64,000 nt of DNA from Escherichia coli. Its GTDB lineage: Bacteria > Pseudomonadota > Gammaproteobacteria > Enterobacterales > Enterobacteriaceae. Every line of letters begins with the position of its first letter. The stretch's first letter is position 1. The position numbers were made by a program, and so were the translations under genes. The stretch is taken from NCBI RefSeq assembly GCF_044324785.1, contig NZ_CP172127.1; one strand, given 5' to 3'. Below the pieces are notes generated by a model. The model saw only the letters and a program-made list of their open reading frames with translations. It was not told where the DNA came from and did not search any database. Of this stretch, positions 24,866 through 33,477 are shown in pieces.

Positions 24866-25370
24866 ACAGGCTCGTGAGGCTCTGGATGCCTGGATATGTC
24901 GACCAGGAATGACACAGGAGCAGGCGACGATATTAATCACTGAAGCATTCTGGGCTTTGAAAGAGCGCCCGAACATCGATGTTCAGCGTGTCACAGATGA
25001 AGGTGGCGCGGTTGATCAGCGAGCGCTTGGTGTTAATCGAGTGAAGATATTCGAACGCTGGAAGGCTATCGACACCAGGGATAAGCGTGAAAAGTTCACG
25101 GCGCTAGTGCCTGCGATTATGGAGGCTATCCGGATTAGTGATTTCAGGTTGTATCGTGAAATTACTGACGGAAAAAGCATCACGTGCATGATCGCCGGGT
25201 TAAACAAAGAATATGGCGATGTGGTGGAGTCCGGACTGCTTTTTGCTGATCCTGCCGTAGTGGATCGTGAAACTGACGAACTTATAGAAAAAGCAATTGC
25301 TTTCAAGCTTGCGTATCGACAGCAATACCAACAAAAAGCTGGATGGAATTATGAGCCTTCTTTTTGCTGA
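24849..25370 (+). CDS. hypothetical phage early protein (cII/YdaT position)
   Basis: 173-aa ORF overlapping the dicC stop; function not recognisable from sequence. Confidence 0.45.
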   Translation: MKITPEQAREALDAWICRPGMTQEQATILITEAFWALKERPNIDVQRVTDEGGAVDQRALGVNRVKIFERWKAIDTRDKREKFTALVPAIMEAIRISDFRLYREITDGKSITCMIAGLNKEYGDVVESGLLFADPAVVDRETDELIEKAIAFKLAYRQQYQQKAGWNYEPSFC

Positions 25371-26316
25371 ACGCCCACTGGTTATAAACACGCAGCTGGC
25401 AATGAAAATTGGCTTAAACGAAGCCATTGTTTTGCAACAACTGCACTACTGGTTGAGAGATACCAACTCCGGCATGGAATGTGATGGTGTTCGCTGGATT
25501 TATAACACAACGGAACAATGGCTGGAACAGTTCCCATTCTGGTCAGAGTCAACGTTAAAGCGCGCGTTTGCAAGTCTGAAAACGCTGGGGCTTTTGCGTT
25601 GTGAAAAGCTCAATAAATCAAAGCGCGATATGACCAATTTCTACACGATCAACTATGGGAGCGAGCTTTTAGATGGTGGCAAATTGAGCGAATCCATCGG
25701 TTCAAAATGCGCCGCTCCATCAGGTCAAAATGACACGATGGAAGAGGTCAAAATGAAACGCTCCATTGATTCAAAACGACCCAATGTCATCGGGTCAAAA
25801 TGGCCTGATGATCTTACAGAGAATACAACAGAGATTACTACAGAGAATAAAAACACTTTTCGTCCGGAAGCTTCGCAACCGGACCCGCAGACGACTGAAC
25901 AGGATTTTTTAACCCGGAACTCCGACGCGGTTGTGTTTAGTGCGAAAAAACGCCAGTGGGGTAGCAGGGAGGATTTGGCGTGTGCGCAGTGGATCTGGGG
26001 GCGGATCGTGGGTCTCTACGAACAGGCAGCCAGTGATGATGGCGAGATCATGCGACCAAAAGAGCCTAACTGGACTGCCTGGGCCAATGACGTGCGCACA
26101 ATGCGGATGCTGGATGGCAGAAGCCACAGACAAATTTGCGAAATGTTTGGTCGGGTTCAGCGAGATCCATTCTGGGTAAAAAACATCATGAGCCCGTCAA
26201 AGCTCCGCGAAAAATGGGACGAACTGGTCATCCGCCTGGGACGTTCACCTGTACAGCGTTGTGTTAATCATATTTCTGAACCGGATACAGAAATTCCGCC
26301 TGGTTTCAGAGGATAA
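25297..26316 (+). CDS. phage replication initiation/organizer protein (O-like)
   Basis: N-terminal winged-helix replisome-organizer-like region, acidic linker, conserved C-terminal domain; true start probably MSLLFAERP at 25351. Confidence 0.6.
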   Translation: MLSSLRIDSNTNKKLDGIMSLLFAERPLVINTQLAMKIGLNEAIVLQQLHYWLRDTNSGMECDGVRWIYNTTEQWLEQFPFWSESTLKRAFASLKTLGLLRCEKLNKSKRDMTNFYTINYGSELLDGGKLSESIGSKCAAPSGQNDTMEEVKMKRSIDSKRPNVIGSKWPDDLTENTTEITTENKNTFRPEASQPDPQTTEQDFLTRNSDAVVFSAKKRQWGSREDLACAQWIWGRIVGLYEQAASDDGEIMRPKEPNWTAWANDVRTMRMLDGRSHRQICEMFGRVQRDPFWVKNIMSPSKLREKWDELVIRLGRSPVQRCVNHISEPDTEIPPGFRG

Positions 26317-26356
26317 GTGTTGATTTCAGGTCATGAGGTAATTTTAAGGGGGACTT

Positions 26357-26779
26357 GTGGCAAAAGTTTTTACACAAGAAGAGCGGGAAAAAATTAAATG
26401 GCAGGTGGTGGAACTCGTGCGCCAGAGCGGCCGTGAGACGTTACGGCAACTGGAAGCTAAAACAGGTGCGACTAGATATCTGATGAGCGTTCTTGCCAGA
26501 GAGCTGGTAGCCAGTGGCGATGTATACAACTCCGGCTACGGGTTATTCCCCTCTGAACAGGCGCGTAAGGACTGGCAAAACGCCCGCAAAAAACTCTCGA
26601 GGGCAAAGGTGAAGAAACCTGCTGTGGTTGATCCGGACCTTATCTGGTCATCACCTGACGGAGAAATACGTCGCTACGACAGTCGCCTAAACATAATCTG
26701 TCGCGAGTGCCGGAAGAGCGAAGTTATGCAGCGCATACTGGCTTTCTATCAGGGTAATTTTCAGGACGTGGCGCAGTGA
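26357..26779 (+). CDS. hypothetical phage protein
   Basis: 140-aa ORF with good coding character, no recognisable motif. Confidence 0.45.
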   Translation: MAKVFTQEEREKIKWQVVELVRQSGRETLRQLEAKTGATRYLMSVLARELVASGDVYNSGYGLFPSEQARKDWQNARKKLSRAKVKKPAVVDPDLIWSSPDGEIRRYDSRLNIICRECRKSEVMQRILAFYQGNFQDVAQ

Positions 26780-27210
26780 GTGCACCGGCAACCATTCTTG
26801 ATATGTGCTGTGGCAGCCGCATGTTCTGGTTCGATAAGTCTGACGAACGGGCGATATTTAGCGATATCAGAAAAGAAGGATACACATTACGCAATGGGAG
26901 ACGCTTGATTATCAGCCCTGACATTATCGCAGATTTTCGTGCATTATCATTTGCAGACGCATCTTTTTCGATGGTTGTATTAGACCCTCCGCATCTTGAG
27001 CGTGTTGGTGATAACGCCTGGATGGGAAAGAAATATGGACGGCTGAATAAAGATGCCTGGCGTGATGATTTGCGACAGAGATTTAAAGAAGCTTTTCGGG
27101 TGTTGAGGCCGCACGGCGTTCTGATTTTTTAATGGAATGAAACGCAAATACCGGTAAGCCAGATTCTGGCACTGACAGATAGAAAGCCTGTTATCTGTCA
27201 ACGAACAGGG
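26776..27210 (+). pseudogene. truncated phage DNA methyltransferase (amino-MTase with DPPH motif)
   Basis: VLDPPHL catalytic motif; stop inside a T-run at 27130-27132, similarity continues about 26 codons in-frame after it. Confidence 0.6.
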
Positions 27211-27554
27211 AAAAAACGATAAAACCCACTGGATTATTTTTATGAAAGAGGCATCCAGTGAGTAGATTCGTAAGGTTACAGATACGTATATCTGAATAAT
27301 TAAATTCAGTTCTGTAAATAAAACTTAATCCTTAACCGGATGGATTTCTGCACCCTCAGAACATCAGGAGGCCGCCCGAAAGGGCGGTAGTGAAATGCGA
27401 AAGTTCAAAATTATTATTGAAACGGGAATAGCTGGTGGAGATTTTGAGGATGTATTCGAAGTGGACGATGACGCAACACCTGATGAAATTCATGACGGAG
27501 CATAAGAAATTTTCTTTAACTACTGCAATTACTCATACCACGAAATAAAAGACG

Positions 27555-28030
27555 ATGAGGAAGAACAAAGTGGCTGATTTTTGTTCAGCTAAATATAACA
27601 TCAGTTTTGAAGAGCGGGATGAACTATTAATGGACTATGGTGAGTTACGCGGTGGAAGTGCTGCTGATGTCGAATCCTAGCGTGATGACTATGAAGCGGG
27701 AAAAACTCCGGTCGAAGCATATTGTGAGGAGTGGGGCGATGAATGAGCGAGATTAATTATCAGGAAGGGCATGAAACGGCGGGGCAAGCAAAACCAGTGA
27801 CATGGCGATATCGCTACGTGAAAAAAGGCGTTACGGACTTTCAGGGGAAGTAGTGGTCTGGTGACTGGAAATATGTACCGAAAAAAGAGGATTGTAACGA
27901 CAGGCCGAACTATCAAATTCAGGCCTTATTCACTGCCTCACCAGTCCCGGTTACATCAGAAGAATTGGTTAAAGCTGTGCACTTTTATGAACAACTAAAA
28001 CGCGAAAATCCACCAACATCCGGCAACTAG
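27555..28030 (+). pseudogene. two translationally coupled small ORFs, each interrupted by one in-frame TAG
   Basis: Frame-0 ORF 27555-27746 has TAG at 27678; overlapping frame-2 ORF 27743-28030 (MSEINYQEGHE...) has TAG at 27851. Confidence 0.35.
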
Positions 28031-28284
28031 ATTAATGGGTTAACTATGTCGGTTAAACGACCAGCCAACTGAAAAAGCGGAAACCTGATTACAGGTTGCC
28101 AGATAAGGCAATGAGCTACCTGGCGCGGAACGGACTGATAAGTATGGGGAATGTTTTACGATGAACCTTTAGACTAAAGAGTTTGTAACGCTATGTAAGT
28201 GATTTTTTCTGGTTTAGATATTTATATGTCCGGCCAAATTGAGGTGTGTTTAAATGTAATTGCACATTGATTGTAGGAGGAATA

Positions 28285-28464
28285 ATGAAAAACGCATTGC
28301 AGTTTTTGTTTGTTGCGTTCTGGTTGTTCGCATCATGTATGCCCATCATCTTCACAGCAAGGTATATGGAAAAAGTTGATGTTTTGATATTAATATTTGG
28401 ATATATAAATGCCCTTTTTTTAGGGGTGTTCATGGCGGTCATGTGCATTGAATACTGGCGGTAA
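28285..28464 (+). CDS. small two-helix membrane protein, unknown function
   Basis: 59 aa from MKNALQFLFVAFWLFASCMPIIF, preceded by AGGAGG Shine-Dalgarno. Confidence 0.45.
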   Translation: MKNALQFLFVAFWLFASCMPIIFTARYMEKVDVLILIFGYINALFLGVFMAVMCIEYWR

Positions 28465-29755
28465 ATACAGCGAACTCCATTGGTTTAGTTGGATATTTAC
28501 TGTGCTGGACAAAAACGGTTTGCGGGGAAATCTTAGTTAAGTAGAATGACTGCGGGTGCTTGAGGCTATCTGCCTCGGGCACGAACACCAACGGCAGGTA
28601 GAGAAAAGCCCCAGTTAACATTACGCGTCCTGCAAGACGCTTAACATTAATCTGAGGCCAATTTCATGCCAGACACATGTAGGTTAGCCTCTTACGTGCC
28701 GAAAGGCAAGGAGAAGCAGGCTATTGTTAACACCAAGCTGTAATGTCCCCTTTGAACCATTCTAAAATGTCCCCAGACAATTCTCTGGGGGATTTTTCAT
28801 GACCAAAGAAACTGTTACGATGAGTCATAAGGAACTCCACCGACTTCAGATTATTCAGGAGTCAATTAATCGACATATTACTCAGGAACAAGCTGCGGCA
28901 CGCATTGGCATTTCTATTCGGCAGGTTAAACGTCTGGTGCAACGGTATAGAAATGAAGGGCCTTCTGGTCTGGTTTCCCACCGACGTGGAAAGCGTCCTA
29001 ATAATTCCTTTTCTACTGAATTCAGAGCAACAGTAATTTTACTCCTCAAAGGCCGTTACGCTGATTTTGGACCTACGTTTGCGTGCGAAAAATTGCGCGA
29101 GATACACGGTTTATCTTTATCCGTTGAAACTCTCAGAAAGTGGATGATAGAAGAGGGGGGTATGGCGTGAACGCCGTCGTAAAATTGCCCGTATATATCA
29201 ACGCCGCATGCGACGACCATCTTACGGTGAACTGATCCAGATTGATGGCTCACCTCATGACTGGTTTGAAAATCGAGGCCCCAGATGTACACTGATCGTT
29301 TTCATTGATGATGCCACCAGTGCGTTGATGGCGTTGCGTTTTGTGCCTGCTGAAACAACCCGGGCTTACATGGAAACCCTCCGGGGTTACCTTAATGATC
29401 ATGGCGTACCGCTCGCTCTCTACTCTGATAGACACAGTATATTCAGGGTAAATAACCCAGAGCGGGAAGGTGAGCTGACCCAGTTCACTCGTGCGATAAA
29501 GACACTGGGCATCGAGCCAATCCATGCCAACAGCCCGCAGGCAAAAGGGCGGGTAGAGCGCGCCAATCAGACACTACAGGACAGGCTGGTCAAAGAAATG
29601 CGGCTTCAGAATATCAGTGATATTGAAACAGCAAATGCATGGTTGCCGACCTTTATTGAAGCCTATAACAACCGGTTCGCTACGTCGCCTCGTACTACTG
29701 ATAATGCTCATCTTGATGTGCACCATTCTGAAGAGGAACTGGGTTATATCTTCAG

Positions 29756-29764
29756 CCTACAGGC
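29756..29764. repeat. 9-bp target site duplication (CCTACAGGC), left copy
   Basis: Identical 9-mer immediately flanks both ends of the IS. Confidence 0.8.
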
Positions 29765-30821
29765 GGCTTTGTTGAATAAATCAGATTTCGGGTAAGTCTC
29801 CCCCGTAGCGGGTTGTGTTTTCAGGCAATACGCACGCTTTCAGGCATACCTGCTTTCGTCATTTTGTTCAGCGCTCGTACCAGGGCCATAGCCTCCGCAA
29901 CCTGACCATCGTAGTCACGCAGCGTCAGTGAACCCCCGAACAGCTGTTTTACCCGGTACATCGCCGTTTCCGCTATCGAGCGACGGTTGTAATCTGTTGT
30001 CCATTTCCACCGCGCATTACTCCCGGTCATTCGCTGATTAGCCACTGCACGGTTACGGTCTGCATATTCACCGGGCCAGTAACCCGCACCTTTTCGGGGA
30101 GGGATAAGCGCGCTGATTTTCTTACGCCGCAGTTCATCGTGACATAGCCGGGTATCGTAAGCGCCATCGGCGGCGGCTGACCTGATTTTCCGGTGGGTTT
30201 GCCGGATTAACCCGGGGAAGGCCTCTGAGTCCGTAACGTTGTTCAGCGACAGGTCAGCGCAGATGATTTCATGTGTTTTACTGTCAACGGCGAGATGCAG
30301 CTTACGCCAGATACGGCGGCGTTCCTGGCCATGCTTTTTGACTTTCCACTCGCCTTCACCGAAGACCTTCAGCCCGGTGGAATCAATTACCAGGTGTGCG
30401 ATTTCACCCCGGGTGGGCGTTTTGAAACTGACATTAACCGACTTTGCCCGCCTGCTGACACAGCTGTAATCCGGGCAGCGTAGCGGAACGTTCATCAGAG
30501 AAAAAATGGAATCAATAAAGCCCTGCGCAGCCCGCAGGGTCAGCCTGAATACGCGTTTAATGACCAGCACAGTAGTGATGGCAAGGTCAGAATAGCGCTG
30601 AGGTCTGCCTCGTGAAGAAGGTGTTGCTGACTCATACCAGGCCTGAATAGCTTCATCATCCAGCCAGAAAGTTATGGAGCCACGGTTGATGAGGGCTTTA
30701 TTGTAGGTGGGCCAGTTGGTGATTTTGAACTTTTGCTTTGCCACGGAACGGTCTGCGTTGTCGGGAAGATACGTGATCTGATCCTTCAACTCAGCAAAAG
30801 TTCGATTTATTCAACAAAGCC
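29765..30821 (-). mobile_element. IS903-group insertion sequence (IS5 family), 1057 bp
   Basis: Perfect 18-bp terminal inverted repeats GGCTTTGTTGAATAAATC, 1057-bp length and 9-bp duplication typical of IS903/IS102. Confidence 0.9.
29821..30744 (-). CDS. IS903-type DDE transposase
   Basis: ORF inside the IS with DDE residues and YREK-like signature; probable GTG start giving 307 aa. Confidence 0.85.
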   Translation of the reverse strand: MAKQKFKITNWPTYNKALINRGSITFWLDDEAIQAWYESATPSSRGRPQRYSDLAITTVLVIKRVFRLTLRAAQGFIDSIFSLMNVPLRCPDYSCVSRRAKSVNVSFKTPTRGEIAHLVIDSTGLKVFGEGEWKVKKHGQERRRIWRKLHLAVDSKTHEIICADLSLNNVTDSEAFPGLIRQTHRKIRSAAADGAYDTRLCHDELRRKKISALIPPRKGAGYWPGEYADRNRAVANQRMTGSNARWKWTTDYNRRSIAETAMYRVKQLFGGSLTLRDYDGQVAEAMALVRALNKMTKAGMPESVRIA

Positions 30822-30830
30822 CCTACAGGC
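30822..30830. repeat. 9-bp target site duplication (CCTACAGGC), right copy
   Basis: Direct repeat of 29756-29764. Confidence 0.8.
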
Positions 30831-31642
30831 GAAGCGCGTTCTGTCTAAAAATCTCACTTTCCAGTACAAAAGCAGTGCGTTTCAGGTACGCAGTGAGGGC
30901 CGGGGATATCGACTTAGGCATTCGGTTGTTACTGTATGCGAGAACTTTGACGGTGAAATTAACGTTCTGTATGACGGGAAAGCGCTGGGCTGGGAAAAGT
31001 ATGTTGATGGCCCGGAGCCTATACCACTGGATGATGAAAAGAGTGTCCATGAACGAGTGGATAATGCCCGTATTGATTTACGCTCAAAATACTATGTTAA
31101 ACCTAAAGCTGACCATCCCTGGCTTACGCGCCGAACGCAAAGTCATCAGCAAGTTAAGCCCCCGAAGTTACCTAAAAAGAAGCCTGATCCCGATAAAAAA
31201 GATTGAAACCAAGATCGATTCGGTTGAGTGCATATCCATTCATAGGGTAGATTCTTAAGTCGCGTTTCTGGTGTTCATTTTCGGGTGGTTTGTTACTTGT
31301 TTTACCGGGGATATGCCAGAAACGCGCTGAGTCAGTCTGGGCGGTGCGCGTAATGAGGCGTTATGGTAAATAGCCTATGCTAATGTCCGCTAAGAGCAAG
31401 AAGCGGAAGTTGGCAGTTTTGTGGACTGTCCCCACAAATGTGACTACAGAAATAGTTGCAATTCATAATTGATCATGGGTTGTCAGTTAAACTCGTGGCG
31501 ATTTAAATAGACTAATTGGGAGTGCGTCCATTACTTATATCTTGTAATGTTAACTATCAGAAATGATACAAAGATAATATGTCTTTAAAGAAAAGGCTGA
31601 TGGCGAAAAGTGGCCCGATGAGGGCCACAATACGGCTGTCAC

Positions 31643-31975
31643 TTAGACGTAAATATCAATGGTGCCAGCGGTATTTGTATCGTCTTTTTTCTCTTCTTTT
31701 TTATCAGGCTGAACTGTCGCGTCTTTATTCTTTTTCTCTGCCTGCTGCCTTAACAACTGCTCCAGTTGAGCCCTGAGGCTTTCAATTTGCTTCTGTACCA
31801 ATGCAGCCATTTCTTTTTTCTGCTGTGTCGTCATCCCCTCTTCCGATGAGATTTTCCCAAGCTTTTCAGTCAGCACCTGAATTTGTCTTGTGATTTTGGC
31901 TATTTCTGATGTTCCTTCCGGGGCGGAGTTGTTTGAAATAACGGTTGAGGTATTTCCCTGAATTGTGACAGACAT
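31643..31975 (-). CDS. flxA: FlxA (sigma-28-dependent prophage protein)
   Basis: 110 aa MSVTIQGNTSTVISNNSAPEG... matches recalled FlxA. Confidence 0.9.
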   Translation of the reverse strand: MSVTIQGNTSTVISNNSAPEGTSEIAKITRQIQVLTEKLGKISSEEGMTTQQKKEMAALVQKQIESLRAQLEQLLRQQAEKKNKDATVQPDKKEEKKDDTNTAGTIDIYV

Positions 31976-31999
31976 AGATTTCTCCTTTTAAAAAAGCAC

Positions 32000-32026
32000 T
32001 ATCGGCATGCACAAAAAAATCTTTAA
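32000..32026 (-). promoter_or_regulatory. sigma-28 (FliA) promoter for flxA
   Basis: Minus strand TAAAGATT-N11-GCCGATAG against consensus TAAAGTTT-N11-GCCGATAA, about 25 bp upstream of the flxA start. Confidence 0.65.
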
Positions 32027-32177
32027 TCGTATTTCTTGTGTCATTAATTGTTTGATGTTCAGATTGTTTTCCTCGCGGGCTGGCGCGCCTCAGAAAGTAA
32101 AGCTTGTTGACAGGGGTAAACGTTCGGCAATAATTTTCTGCCGCATGCGGGTGTTGCATAAAACGTGCTACGTTCCT

Positions 32178-32483
32178 TTATCGACAGGTCAGGTCACCGC
32201 TCACCCGCCGACGAGAAAGCAACACTGACATGCTAAAGCAAAAAATAGATGAATAAGTTGAGTTGTGCATATGTAGCCTGACCGTCACAAAGTATATGGT
32301 GTCTGTACCAGTAAGATGATGGCCGGACTCTTTAAAAACGAGCTGACCTGCACAATACAGGATGGACTTAGCAATGGCTGCTCCTGGCACAAAGCGGACA
32401 GTGATCACCGTTCTTACGACTACTTTCTGACTTCCTTCGTGACTTGCCCTAAGCATGTTGTAGTGCGATACTTGTAATGACAT
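32178..32483 (-). CDS. ydfV: hypothetical protein at the YdfV position
   Basis: 101-aa ORF between flxA and relB. Confidence 0.55.
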   Translation of the reverse strand: MSLQVSHYNMLRASHEGSQKVVVRTVITVRFVPGAAIAKSILYCAGQLVFKESGHHLTGTDTIYFVTVRLHMHNSTYSSIFCFSMSVLLSRRRVSGDLTCR

Positions 32484-32507
32484 TTGTAATTACAAGAGGT
32501 GTAAGAC

Positions 32508-32747
32508 ATGGGTAGCATTAACCTGCGTATTGACGATGAACTTAAAGCGCGTTCTTACGCCGCGCTTGAAAAAATGGGTGTAACTCCTTCTGAAGCGCTT
32601 CGTCTCATGCTCGAGTATATCGCTGACAATGAACGCTTGCCGTTCAAACAGACACTCCTGAGTGATGAAGATGCTGAACTTGTGGAGATAGTGAAAGAAC
32701 GGCTTCGTAATCCTAAGCCAGTACGTGTGACGCTGGATGAACTCTGA
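32508..32747 (+). CDS. relB: RelB antitoxin
   Basis: 79 aa MGSINLRIDDELKARSYAALEKMGVTPSEALR... matches recalled RelB. Confidence 0.9.
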   Translation: MGSINLRIDDELKARSYAALEKMGVTPSEALRLMLEYIADNERLPFKQTLLSDEDAELVEIVKERLRNPKPVRVTLDEL

Positions 32748-33034
32748 TGGCGTATTTTCTGGATTTTGACGAGCGGGCACTAAAGGAATGGCGAAAGCTG
32801 GGCTCGACGGTACGTGAACAGTTGAAAAAGAAGCTGGTTGAAGTACTTGAGTCACCCCGGATTGAAGCAAACAAGCTCCGTGGTATGCCTGATTGTTACA
32901 AGATTAAGCTCCGGTCTTCAGGCTATCGCCTTGTATACCAGGTTATAGACGAGAAAGTTGTCGTTTTCGTGATTTCTGTTGGGAAAAGAGAACGCTCGGA
33001 AGTATATAGCGAGGCGGTCAAACGCATTCTCTGA
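32747..33034 (+). CDS. relE: RelE mRNA-interferase toxin
   Basis: 95 aa MAYFLDFDERALKEWRKLGSTVREQLKKKL..., start overlaps the relB stop. Confidence 0.9.
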   Translation: MAYFLDFDERALKEWRKLGSTVREQLKKKLVEVLESPRIEANKLRGMPDCYKIKLRSSGYRLVYQVIDEKVVVFVISVGKRERSEVYSEAVKRIL

Positions 33035-33105
33035 ACCAAAGCATGACATCTCTGTTTCGCACCGAAGGTGACACTTCTGCTTTGCGTTGACAGGAGAAGC
33101 AGGCT

Positions 33106-33261
33106 ATGAAGCAGCAAAAGGCGATGTTAATCGCCCTGATCGTCATCTGTTTAACCGTCATAGTGACGGCACTGGTAACGAGGAAAGACCTCTGCGAGGT
33201 ACGAATCCGAACCGGCCAGACGGAGGTCGCTGTCTTCACAGCTTACGAACCTGAGGAGTAA
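33106..33261 (+). CDS. hokD: Hok-family membrane toxin HokD (RelF)
   Basis: Manual translation MKQQKAMLIALIVICLTVIVTALVTRKDLCEVRIRTGQTEVAVFTAYEPEE, 51 aa, below the ORF-track cutoff. Confidence 0.85.
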   Translation: MKQQKAMLIALIVICLTVIVTALVTRKDLCEVRIRTGQTEVAVFTAYEPEE

Positions 33262-33477
33262 GAGACCCGGCGGGGGAGAAATCCCTCGCCACCTCTGATG
33301 TGGCAGGCATCCTCAACGCACCCGCACTTAACCCGCTTCGGCGGGTTTTTGTTTTTATTTTCAACGCGTTTGAAGTTCTGGACGGTGCCGGAATAGAATC
33401 AAAAATACTTAAGTAGCGCGCAGGGATAAGAGGGATGGTCCCTTAAAGGGGAGAGCTAATTATCCGGAAGGATTCTG

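Follow-up and report, generated by a model that had tools for sequence, protein, structure and literature searches.

A cargo-carrying, relBE-containing transposon of the IS1202 family in the hokD locus of an Escherichia coli Qin prophage, itself interrupted by IS903B

In the E. coli DNA analysed here (64,000 nt of contig NZ_CP172127.1, assembly GCF_044324785.1; hereafter the window), the Qin prophage carries a transposon inserted where the Shine-Dalgarno sequence and start codon of hokD lie. Counting the hok toxin locus, the transposon that interrupts it and the IS903B within this transposon, the nesting inside the prophage has three levels. The outer element is a 3.3-kb transposon with cargo rather than a simple IS. 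The arrangement would have arisen in an IAI1-like E. coli whose Qin prophage went through four steps in turn, namely hokD, the IS1202-family transposon, a G insertion and IS903B, and a probability of about 0.85 is given to this reading. The features of the locus are collected in Table 1.

Table 1. Features of the interrupted hokD locus, in coordinates of the window
Feature	Position	Strand	Basis
Orphaned 5' leader of hokD mRNA (promoter-proximal leader, sok antisense region, truncated mok), up to the start codon of hok	28554-28724	+	Rfam RF01794
Transposon target-site duplication, left 15-bp copy, GGAGAAGCAGGCTAT (hok Shine-Dalgarno to AT of ATG)	28710-28724	.	Identical to 33093-33107
Left terminal inverted repeat, TGTTAACACCAAGCTGTAATGTCCCC	28725-28750	+	Sharp boundary in six-context alignment; 19/26 to right end
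Second copy of the inner part of the left inverted repeat, AAATGTCCCC	28765-28774		Subterminal repeat
Outer transposase gene, 5' part (HTH domains), cut off early by the frameshift	28799-29170	+	ORF list, Pfam
G6 run, +1 frameshift	29155-29160	+	Comparison with related copies
Outer transposase gene, middle part (DDE/rve core), shifted frame, up to IS903B	29208-29764	+	ORF list, Pfam
IS903B 9-bp target duplication, left copy, CCTACAGGC	29756-29764	.	Identical 9-mers
IS903B (IS5 family), 1057 bp	29765-30821	-	Perfect 18-bp inverted repeats, profile match, DNA identity
IS903B transposase, intact 322-aa ORF	29821-30789	-	ORF list
IS903B 9-bp target duplication, right copy, CCTACAGGC	30822-30830	.	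Identical 9-mers
Outer transposase gene, 3' part	30831-31206	+	Frame resumes after IS903B duplication
Variable cargo segment	31412-32380	.	Sibling similarity stops at 31411, resumes at 32381
flxA (cargo)	31643-31975	-	
ydfV (mostly inside the variable cargo segment)	32178-32483	-	
Conserved right module, relB and relE, reading outward towards hokD	32381-33066	+	Sibling comparison
relB	32508-32747	+	
relE	32747-33034	+	
Inner repeat near right end	33042-33054		
Right terminal inverted repeat, ...GGTGACACTTCTGCTTTGCGTTGACA	33067-33092	-	19/26 match to left end
Transposon target-site duplication, right 15-bp copy, GGAGAAGCAGGCTAT, overlapping the hokD ATG (33106)	33093-33107	.	Identical to left copy
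hokD coding sequence, 51 aa	33106-33261	+	Same locus annotated in IAI1 and K-12
Terminator-like hairpin after hokD	33330-33356		

IS903B and the transposase gene that it interrupts

The innermost element had been described in the first-pass annotation as an IS903-type insertion of 1057 bp whose 18-bp inverted repeats and 9-bp target duplication are both perfect, and all of this was borne out. The inverted repeats (29765-29782 and 30804-30821; GGCTTTGTTGAATAAATC) are identical over 18 bp and divergent beyond, and their motif has two sites in the 64-kb window, both of them ends of the element, for an expected number of 0.01. The 9-mers flanking the element match perfectly, which has a chance probability of 4^-9 for a specified 9-mer. 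The transposase scored 357 bits against the NCBIfam IS5-family model NF033579 (cutoff 140), while at the DNA level the copy is identical at 1054 of 1057 nt (99.7%) to the PGAP-labelled IS903B of strain D53-1. Length, inverted repeats, duplication size and a single DDE transposase are all shared with IS903/IS903B (IS5 family, IS903 group), the sole noteworthy difference being the new insertion site; the junction was found in none of 5426 complete E. coli genomes. By itself, this nesting is ordinary and belongs to routine genome decay.

The interrupted gene had been read as a DDE/rve-type transposase whose frame resumes after the 9-bp duplication and also changes at the G6 run, and the comparisons agree on each point. 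The host frame picks up directly after the second 9-mer, and after in-silico deletion of 29765-30830 the DNA is collinear with the corresponding locus in E. coli IAI1, which lacks the interruption (3235 bp, 0 gaps, 99.97% identity). Removal of IS903B together with one G of the G6 run restores a single ORF of 446 aa, identical at 443 of its 446 residues to the intact transposase of plasmid copies. This reconstruction scored 462 bits against NF033594 (the ISNCY model; cutoff 250) and matches the Pfam domains HTH_28/29/23/32 at residues 10-116, plus rve_3; intact copies 99% identical to it carry the PGAP label "IS1202-like element ISEsa1 family transposase". The last 49 codons of the gene (31057-31206) are the ydfW of E. 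coli annotations. Hence ydfW, the "HTH domain protein" and the "ISEsa1 transposase, partial" of thousands of E. coli genomes are pieces of one gene.

At the G6 site, related copies have either GGGGT (Leu) or G5 (Val), and the G6 allele is common to IAI1 and 11 other loci. Because IAI1 and many other E. coli have G6 without IS903B, the frameshift is older than the IS903B insertion, in line with the earlier suggestion that IS903B entered an already frameshifted gene. It could be objected that the G run is a programmed frameshift or a sequencing error and that IS903B was the first lesion to inactivate the outer transposase: slippage and sequencing errors are both typical of homopolymer runs, and the upstream ORF would yield a free-standing HTH protein, as which PGAP indeed annotates it. 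However, the intact relatives encode one continuous 446-aa protein from GGGGT or G5 with no frameshift, G6 is present in independently sequenced genomes (IAI1 among them) and in several metagenomic contigs, and G6 could be read through in frame only with a shift used by no known family member, which makes this objection highly improbable.

Ends, cargo and extent of the outer transposon

The outer transposon spans 28725-33092, with an intact length of 3301 bp, and runs from TGTTAAC... at 28725 to ...GTTGACA at 33092 (TGT...ACA). Salmonella plasmid pSA20064858.1 (NZ_CP030003.1, bases 68352-71652) provides an example of the intact 3301-bp form. Its terminal inverted repeats, IRL and IRR, are 26 bp long and match at 19 of 26 positions, the best pair in an 8-kb scan. 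Copies of their inner part recur at a spacing of 24-25 bp, as ATGTCCCC at 28743 and 28767 and, on the opposite strand, as GTGTCACC at 33074 and ATGTCATG at 33049; these repeats are a putative second transposase-binding site. These features match the IS1202 family as described by Harmer, Pong and Hall 2023 (PMC10132070), with TGT/ACA ends, imperfect terminal inverted repeats of 24-26 bp, a further repeat inside each end and a subgroup whose target-site duplications are of >15 bp. Between the ends of the 3.3-kb element, no ORFs other than tnp, flxA, ydfV, relB and relE are present.

The ends of the outer element had not been identified in the first-pass annotation, which proposed a search near 28740 and 31440. 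The left repeat was indeed found there, at 28725-28750, whereas none was present near 31440 (best match over 31380-31440: 12/26, the chance level), and the true right end lies 1.65 kb past the proposed position. A stringent search of the immediate flanks for inverted or direct repeats found nothing. Beside the boundary between cargo and relBE, at 32348-32373, there is an IRL-like match of 17/26, which is about the chance level for the scan.

These ends bear on a different delimitation, in which the outer element would be the 1.6-kb ISEsa1 as catalogued (approximately 28725-31411) and flxA, ydfV and relBE ordinary neighbours in Qin. Copies with different downstream genes do lose similarity at 31411, and the shared module, at 1621 bp, has nearly the length given for ISEsa1 (1609 bp, catalogued without a target-site duplication). 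Yet neither an inverted repeat nor a duplication was found at 31411, a duplication around the 1.6-kb left module having been searched for, and similarity returns at 32381 in all versions, to end in the 19/26 inverted repeat. Moreover, perfect 15-bp repeats lie beyond the right inverted repeat in four hok loci, a duplication is also present at one non-hok site, and the exact empty pnd site is recovered only by removing the whole 3301 bp. The shorter delimitation is accordingly given very little credence, and the 3.3-kb transposon is retained, although a genuine short IS form of ISEsa1 may exist besides it.

Insertion into hokD and recurrence at hok/pnd loci

The leader and the coding sequence of hokD are now on opposite sides of the transposon. 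The leader scored 99.8 bits against Rfam RF01794 (sok; gathering score 59) over the full model (1-157), and the leader hairpin of the hok target is GCCGNAAGGCAA. Only after in-silico removal of 28725-33107 do the leader, which ends at 28724, and the coding sequence, which starts at 33106, become contiguous, and the site after excision of the transposon is collinear with the uninterrupted hokD-like locus of plasmid pSA186_4. Within the relBE-hokD stretch, the sole terminator-like site comes after hokD; co-transcription of relBE and hokD is cited in PMC5120126.

The relB-relE-hokD (relBEF) operon in the Qin prophage of K-12 is the same locus, with relBE, IRR, the right copy of the duplication and hokD 99.9% identical. 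The full structure is kept in the window and in IAI1, while K-12 has lost the equivalent of 25129-31021 and therefore lacks the leader, the left end and most of the transposase sequence, which has made the transposon unrecognisable there. A structural origin is thereby offered both for the relB-relE-hokD operon and for the absence of a hokD regulatory region in K-12.

The same backbone, with varying cargo, occupies an identical position in an identical orientation in IncI1 pndA, IncF hok and IncHI hok. Each of these insertions has its own perfect 15-bp duplication: TGGAGGGGCTATGAT in IncI1 pndA, GGAGAAGAAGGCCAT in IncF hok and GGAGAAGAAGCCATG in IncHI hok of C. freundii, the transposase module of the latter being 87-89%-diverged. 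A 12,843-bp version at a non-hok site of K. michiganensis is flanked by a 16-bp duplication; overall, the duplication measures 15 bp at four hok sites and 16 bp at two other sites. After in-silico excision, the pnd site is identical at 400 of 400 nt to ColIb-P9 and other IncI1 plasmids, and 80% or more of this 400-nt empty-site query is matched in 1799 plasmid records.

Left junctions were then surveyed at 107 loci gathered by exact match to IRL, a sample that leaves diverged relatives outside. The flanks fall into 33 distinct classes, not all of which are independent events, the Qin classes being variants of one event. Twenty-two classes correspond to hok/pnd leaders cut at the same position (+/-1 nt), three to tandem insertions at the hok Shine-Dalgarno sequence, and eight, about a quarter, to non-hok sequences, so the preference for hok is not absolute. 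Among the right-flank classes, seven out of nine start with the hok Shine-Dalgarno sequence. One non-hok class (L022) has a 6-bp repeat only. Some insertions adjoin a resident IS of the IS481 family, which shows that neither the duplicated sequence nor the sequence downstream of it must be hok. As for other collections, an exact-IRL scan of species-representative genomes gave five loci, of which three are truncated where the contig stops, and a scan of viral contigs returned almost exclusively Qin copies. On pSC138 and on a Providencia plasmid, only the relBE/IRR end is left, truncated by IS26.

Several copies (L015, L056 and L092) have non-matching flanks, with a left leader and a right hok coding sequence of different hok types, a pattern tentatively attributed to recombination between copies. 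That such recombination occurs lends some weight to the idea that the tnp-relBE block spread among hok loci through homologous recombination or plasmid-prophage exchange, rather than by targeted transposition. Recombination, however, would not produce, at every target, a site-specific 15-bp direct repeat of the local sequence, and four diverged loci each have a perfect duplication of their own, together with a matching local leader and coding sequence. The non-hok site has a 16-bp duplication too, the insertion points of separate events differ by +/-1 nt, which fits the action of a transposase, and the empty pnd and hokD-like sites hold one copy, hence the repeats were not pre-existing. Spread by recombination is thus considered highly improbable, and targeted transposition into many diverged hok/pnd loci is the reading pursued below.

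Proposed history and comparison with known systems

The starting point would have been a Qin prophage with an ordinary hok/sok-type locus, hokD. An IS1202-family transposon, with an ISEsa1-type transposase in its left module, a slot for cargo in the centre and relBE in its right module, would then have entered hokD through a cut with a 15-bp stagger, which begins immediately 3' of the conserved leader GGCAA and extends from the hok Shine-Dalgarno sequence to the start codon. With this insertion, the coding sequence of hokD would have lost its connection to the hok promoter, leader and sok region. With a regenerated Shine-Dalgarno sequence and ATG, hokD would have come to follow relE directly, no terminator intervening, which is the known relB-relE-hokD operon. 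An extra G in the homopolymer run would later have put the transposase out of frame and, recently, IS903B would have landed in the transposase gene, duplicating 9 bp of it as this element usually does. The transposase itself probably recognises hok-leader DNA upstream of the duplicated segment, and the relBE of the transposon may compensate for, or replace, the addiction function of the disrupted hok locus. With its ends intact, the defective element could be mobilised in trans.

Taken jointly, the results may be read more broadly, with about equal odds for and against. Elements of the ISEsa1 type would be cargo transposons of 3.3 to 12.8 kb, with relBE always at the right end, homing in one orientation and within a nucleotide to the translation-initiation regions of hok-family type I toxin genes on plasmids and prophages; they would free hok from antisense control and place it under the relBE promoter. 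The relBEF operon of K-12 would then be a fossil of such an insertion, and the hok Shine-Dalgarno region would be shared as a landing pad by two or more unrelated transposases, one each of the IS1202 and IS481 families. No description of hok targeting was found in literature searches, and both hok homing and relBE as transposon cargo appear undescribed so far. In the outer element, the paradigm type II toxin-antitoxin pair, relBE, is carried as fixed cargo by a transposon whose insertion breaks up a type I toxin-antitoxin locus; one addiction module would here take the place of another.

Tn7-like transposons share with the present element TGT/ACA ends, repeated end motifs resembling binding sites, a cargo slot and one-orientation homing to a conserved "safe" site. 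They differ in their 5-bp duplication, compared with 15 bp here, and in gene content, since the 3.3-kb element has a single TnsB-like gene, with no TnsA, TnsC, TnsD/TniQ or TnsE seen among its ORFs.

ISEsa1 is catalogued, in PMC10132070, with 1609 bp, a terminal inverted repeat of 15/22, no target-site duplication and no known target. The transposase type is the same, as the PGAP labels indicate, but the right inverted repeat expected about 1.6 kb from the left end is absent here. Compared with ISEsa1 as catalogued, the present unit is of at least 3.3 kb, has cargo with relBE always rightmost and generates duplications of 15-16 bp. A right end drawn at the wrong place would explain why ISEsa1 was recorded without duplication or target.

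The traits of the element match those of the IS1202 family, as characterised in the same paper. The reconstructed transposase, of 446 aa, lies within the 394-507 aa of the family and has the N-terminal HTH and RNaseH/DDE core; the 26-bp ends agree with TGT/ACA termini and imperfect repeats of about 22-29 bp, and the sequence copies 24-25 bp apart with the extra inner repeat near each end. Among the duplication classes of the family (3-5, 15-17 and 27-28 bp, or none), the 15-16 bp observed here correspond to the >15-bp class. As in the site-hunting ISAjo2 group, insertion takes place in one orientation and always equally far from a conserved sequence. The targets differ, being dif/pdif sites in the family as documented so far and preferentially the hok translation-initiation region here, which would make the latter a second target type for the IS1202 family and, as the hok target has no known bound host protein, a directly testable case of target recognition.

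IS903B within a frameshifted transposase gene

The first-pass annotation had read from the sequence a 1057-bp IS903-type element with perfect 18-bp inverted repeats and a 9-bp duplication. This reading was borne out: the element is an IS903B, flanked on both sides by the 9-mer CCTACAGGC, and the IS903B repeat motif has no further occurrence in the window (expected count 0.01). A size of 1057 bp, 18-bp inverted repeats and a 9-bp duplication are the hallmarks of IS903. Its minus-strand ORF is intact (322 aa) and matches the NCBIfam model for IS5-family transposases with 357 bits. The element, an unremarkable member of its family, shares 1054 of 1057 nucleotides with a copy labelled IS903B in E. 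coli D53-1. When 29765-30830 was removed in silico, as had been proposed, the host ORF became continuous except at a G run. The resulting DNA aligns over 3235 bp, gap-free and at 99.97% identity, with E. coli IAI1, where the locus is uninterrupted; this collinearity is an empty-site proof for IS903B. The junction was absent from all 5426 complete E. coli genomes searched, and the insertion is therefore recent and strain-specific. The nested insertion is confirmed and, in itself, ordinary.

With IS903B excised, the host ORF still shifts frame at the G run (29155-29160). Once one G is removed, the frame encodes a continuous protein of 446 aa, with N-terminal HTH domains and an rve_3 core. This protein reaches 462 bits with the ISNCY transposase model of NCBIfam, and 443 of its 446 residues are the same in the intact 446-aa protein that many plasmids carry as "IS1202-like element ISEsa1 family transposase". 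A programmed frameshift at this run is contradicted by the continuous transposase ORF of the relatives. The site reads GAGGGGTTATGG in 64 related loci and GAGGGGGTATGG in three; the extra G is present in the window, in IAI1 and in ten other loci, so that the frameshift is a real allele predating IS903B, and the host transposase was correctly described as already frameshifted and doubly inactivated.

As for the surrounding stretch (29143-29173), GAGGGGTTA (Leu) is the majority allele across copies, GAGGGGGTA (Val, G5) occurs in few, and GAGGGGGGTA (G6, frameshift) is the allele of the window and the IAI1 lineage. Across the copies the homopolymer grew in steps, a substitution extending the run and slippage coming later. 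In IAI1-like strains, the frameshifted N-terminus of this transposase is annotated as a "helix-turn-helix domain-containing protein".

Ends of the outer transposon and its position in hokD

The locus is the Qin prophage, with flxA, ydfV, relB, relE and hokD on the right side of the transposase. In a six-context alignment, the left end of the outer element is sharp at 28725 (TGTTAACACC...). Rightward, copies with different neighbours part ways after 31411, where neither an inverted repeat (best match 12/26) nor a duplication was found; the right end proposed near 31440 was thus not upheld. These absences agree with the description of ISEsa1 in PMC10132070 (1609 bp, TIR 15/22, no TSD, no known target). 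Equating the outer element with this catalogued 1.6-kb IS fails, since inverted repeat and TSD are absent and the empty site is exact at 3301 bp. The actual right end lies 1.65 kb beyond the one proposed, and its terminal repeat forms with the left end the best pair in a two-strand 8-kb scan. The termini are TGT...ACA, and 24-25 bp inward of each one the inner repeat occurs again. The total length corresponds to 3301 intact bp, one G and 1066 bp of IS903B with its duplication.

An inverted match to the left terminal repeat (17/26) was also seen at 32348-32373 (minus strand), which is about chance level for the scan; its position just left of the relBE module start (32381) is suggestive of an old end or cargo-exchange scar. 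Concerning the Qin copies from viral and metagenome sets (L023, L025, L028 and others; L numbers designate loci collected by exact match to the left inverted repeat), many measure 3274 bp, with a 27-bp internal deletion, or 3301 bp, apparently the intact length, and not 3302 bp, so the state of the transposon differs among E. coli lineages.

Coordinates of the features (window positions unless a locus is named)
Feature	Position	Description
IS903B	29765-30821 (1057 bp); repeats 29765-29782 and 30804-30821	18-bp perfect inverted repeats, GGCTTTGTTGAATAAATC
Outer transposon	28725-33092	4368 bp
Right terminal inverted repeat	33067-33092	...GCGTTGACA; 19/26 match to left end
15-bp duplication	28710-28724 and 33093-33107	GGAGAAGCAGGCTAT, identical outside both ends
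Left flank	28554-28724 (171 bp)	full-length match to Rfam hok/sok leader model, 99.8 bits
E. coli gene "ydfW" (49 aa)	31057-31206	last 49 codons of outer transposase
IS481-family IS	L090:5672-6765; also L077, L092	ends TGTATGGGTCCACC...GTGTGAACTTACACA; 346-aa transposase on opposite strand

The right copy of the duplication extends into the hokD ATG (33106), and the flanks joined with a single 15-mer are collinear with the uninterrupted hokD-like locus of plasmid pSA186_4. The transposon occupies the Shine-Dalgarno (SD)/start-codon region of hokD, whose coding sequence is cut off from its own promoter, leader, mok and sok. hokD is placed immediately 3' of relE and the sole terminator-like hairpin follows hokD; this arrangement is the relB-relE-hokD operon, co-transcribed according to Gotfredsen and Gerdes (1998, as cited in PMC5120126). 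The truncated mok frame (28666-28743) crosses the junction and stops six codons into the left end of the transposon; the hok promoter is therefore directed into the transposase gene, 56 bp upstream of the ATG. K-12 MG1655 (at 1647357) lacks the equivalent of 25129-31021, i.e. 5.9 kb (4.8 kb excluding IS903B). As a consequence, no more than the right third of the transposon is left there, the leader/sok region of hokD is gone, and the transposon structure cannot be seen. The view that hokD has no regulation of its own may stem from this loss.

Recurrence at hok and pnd loci

The same backbone lies, between perfect duplications particular to each site, in IncI1 pndA of a Salmonella plasmid (3301 bp; TGGAGGGGCTATGAT), in IncF hok of Enterobacter asburiae (GGAGAAGAAGGCCAT) and in IncHI hok of Citrobacter freundii (5.8 kb, different cargo, 87-89%-diverged transposase module; GGAGAAGAAGCCATG), and a 12,843-bp version with ncr and chr metal-resistance genes occupies a non-hok site in Klebsiella michiganensis, with a 16-bp duplication. 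In silico excision restores a pnd site that is identical over 400/400 nt to ColIb-P9 and further IncI1 plasmids; 1799 plasmid records each cover at least 80% of this 400-nt query. A left module (to 31411), a variable cargo slot and a right relBE module (from 32381) are common to all versions.

Exact-match loci pooled from genomes, viral and metagenome sets fall into 33 distinct classes by left flank. In 22 of them the flank is a hok or pnd leader, the orientation is constant and the junction follows GGCAA at one position (±1 nt); three are tandem arrangements at a hok SD and eight are non-hok. The hok SD also opens seven of the nine right-flank classes. Judged by TSD sequence and position, at least 12 hok-type junctions look like separate events. 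Spread by homologous recombination explains neither the locus-specific perfect duplications nor the ±1-nt variation of the insertion point; recombination between copies probably accounts for the mismatched flanks in L015, L056 and L092. A 3301-bp copy at a non-hok site (L022, IMGVR_UViG_2912051188_000002) has only a 6-bp direct repeat (CGCCTT), not 15-16 bp.

An unrelated 1094-bp IS481-family IS, found in >2000 plasmids, mostly Klebsiella, pre-occupies the hok SD in several Klebsiella-type loci, flanked there by GGAGA as a 5-bp duplication; two transposase families appear to use the hok SD as a common landing site. This IS adjoins the ISEsa1-type transposon in L015, L074, L076, L081, L082 and L102. 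At IS481-occupied loci the transposon is still at the same position, its TSD being composed of GGAG(A/T) and the initial 10-11 nt of the IS. At L105:11696-11755, two transposons lie head to tail with one 15-bp hok-SD GGAGAAAAAGGCTAT as sole spacer, hence the same site was hit twice. Insertion at such occupied or tandem sites means that the duplicated sequence and the downstream hok coding sequence are both dispensable; we infer that recognition depends on a small hairpin (GCC-GNAA-GGC, then AA) of the conserved leader immediately upstream.

The mechanism that best accounts for these data is targeted transposition in a fixed orientation, by one TnsB-like transposase of the IS1202 family that makes a 15-16-bp staggered cut. 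At this locus, the frameshift followed and IS903B came last. Plausibly, if hypothetically, the transposon would put hok/sok control out of action and supply an addiction module of its own, transcription from the hok promoter now running into the transposase.

Comparison with described systems

It was proposed earlier that relBE is plasmid-derived and "integrated into the ancestral hokD ORF" (Ramisetty and Santhosh 2016, quoted in PMC6379469). The literature searched, which took in the 2016 proposal as quoted and ISEsa1 as listed in PMC10132070, yielded no account of the transposon, of its ends and duplication, or of hok homing. The outer element fits the definition of the IS1202 family (Harmer et al. 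2023). It contradicts ISEsa1 as catalogued in length, right end, TSD and target.
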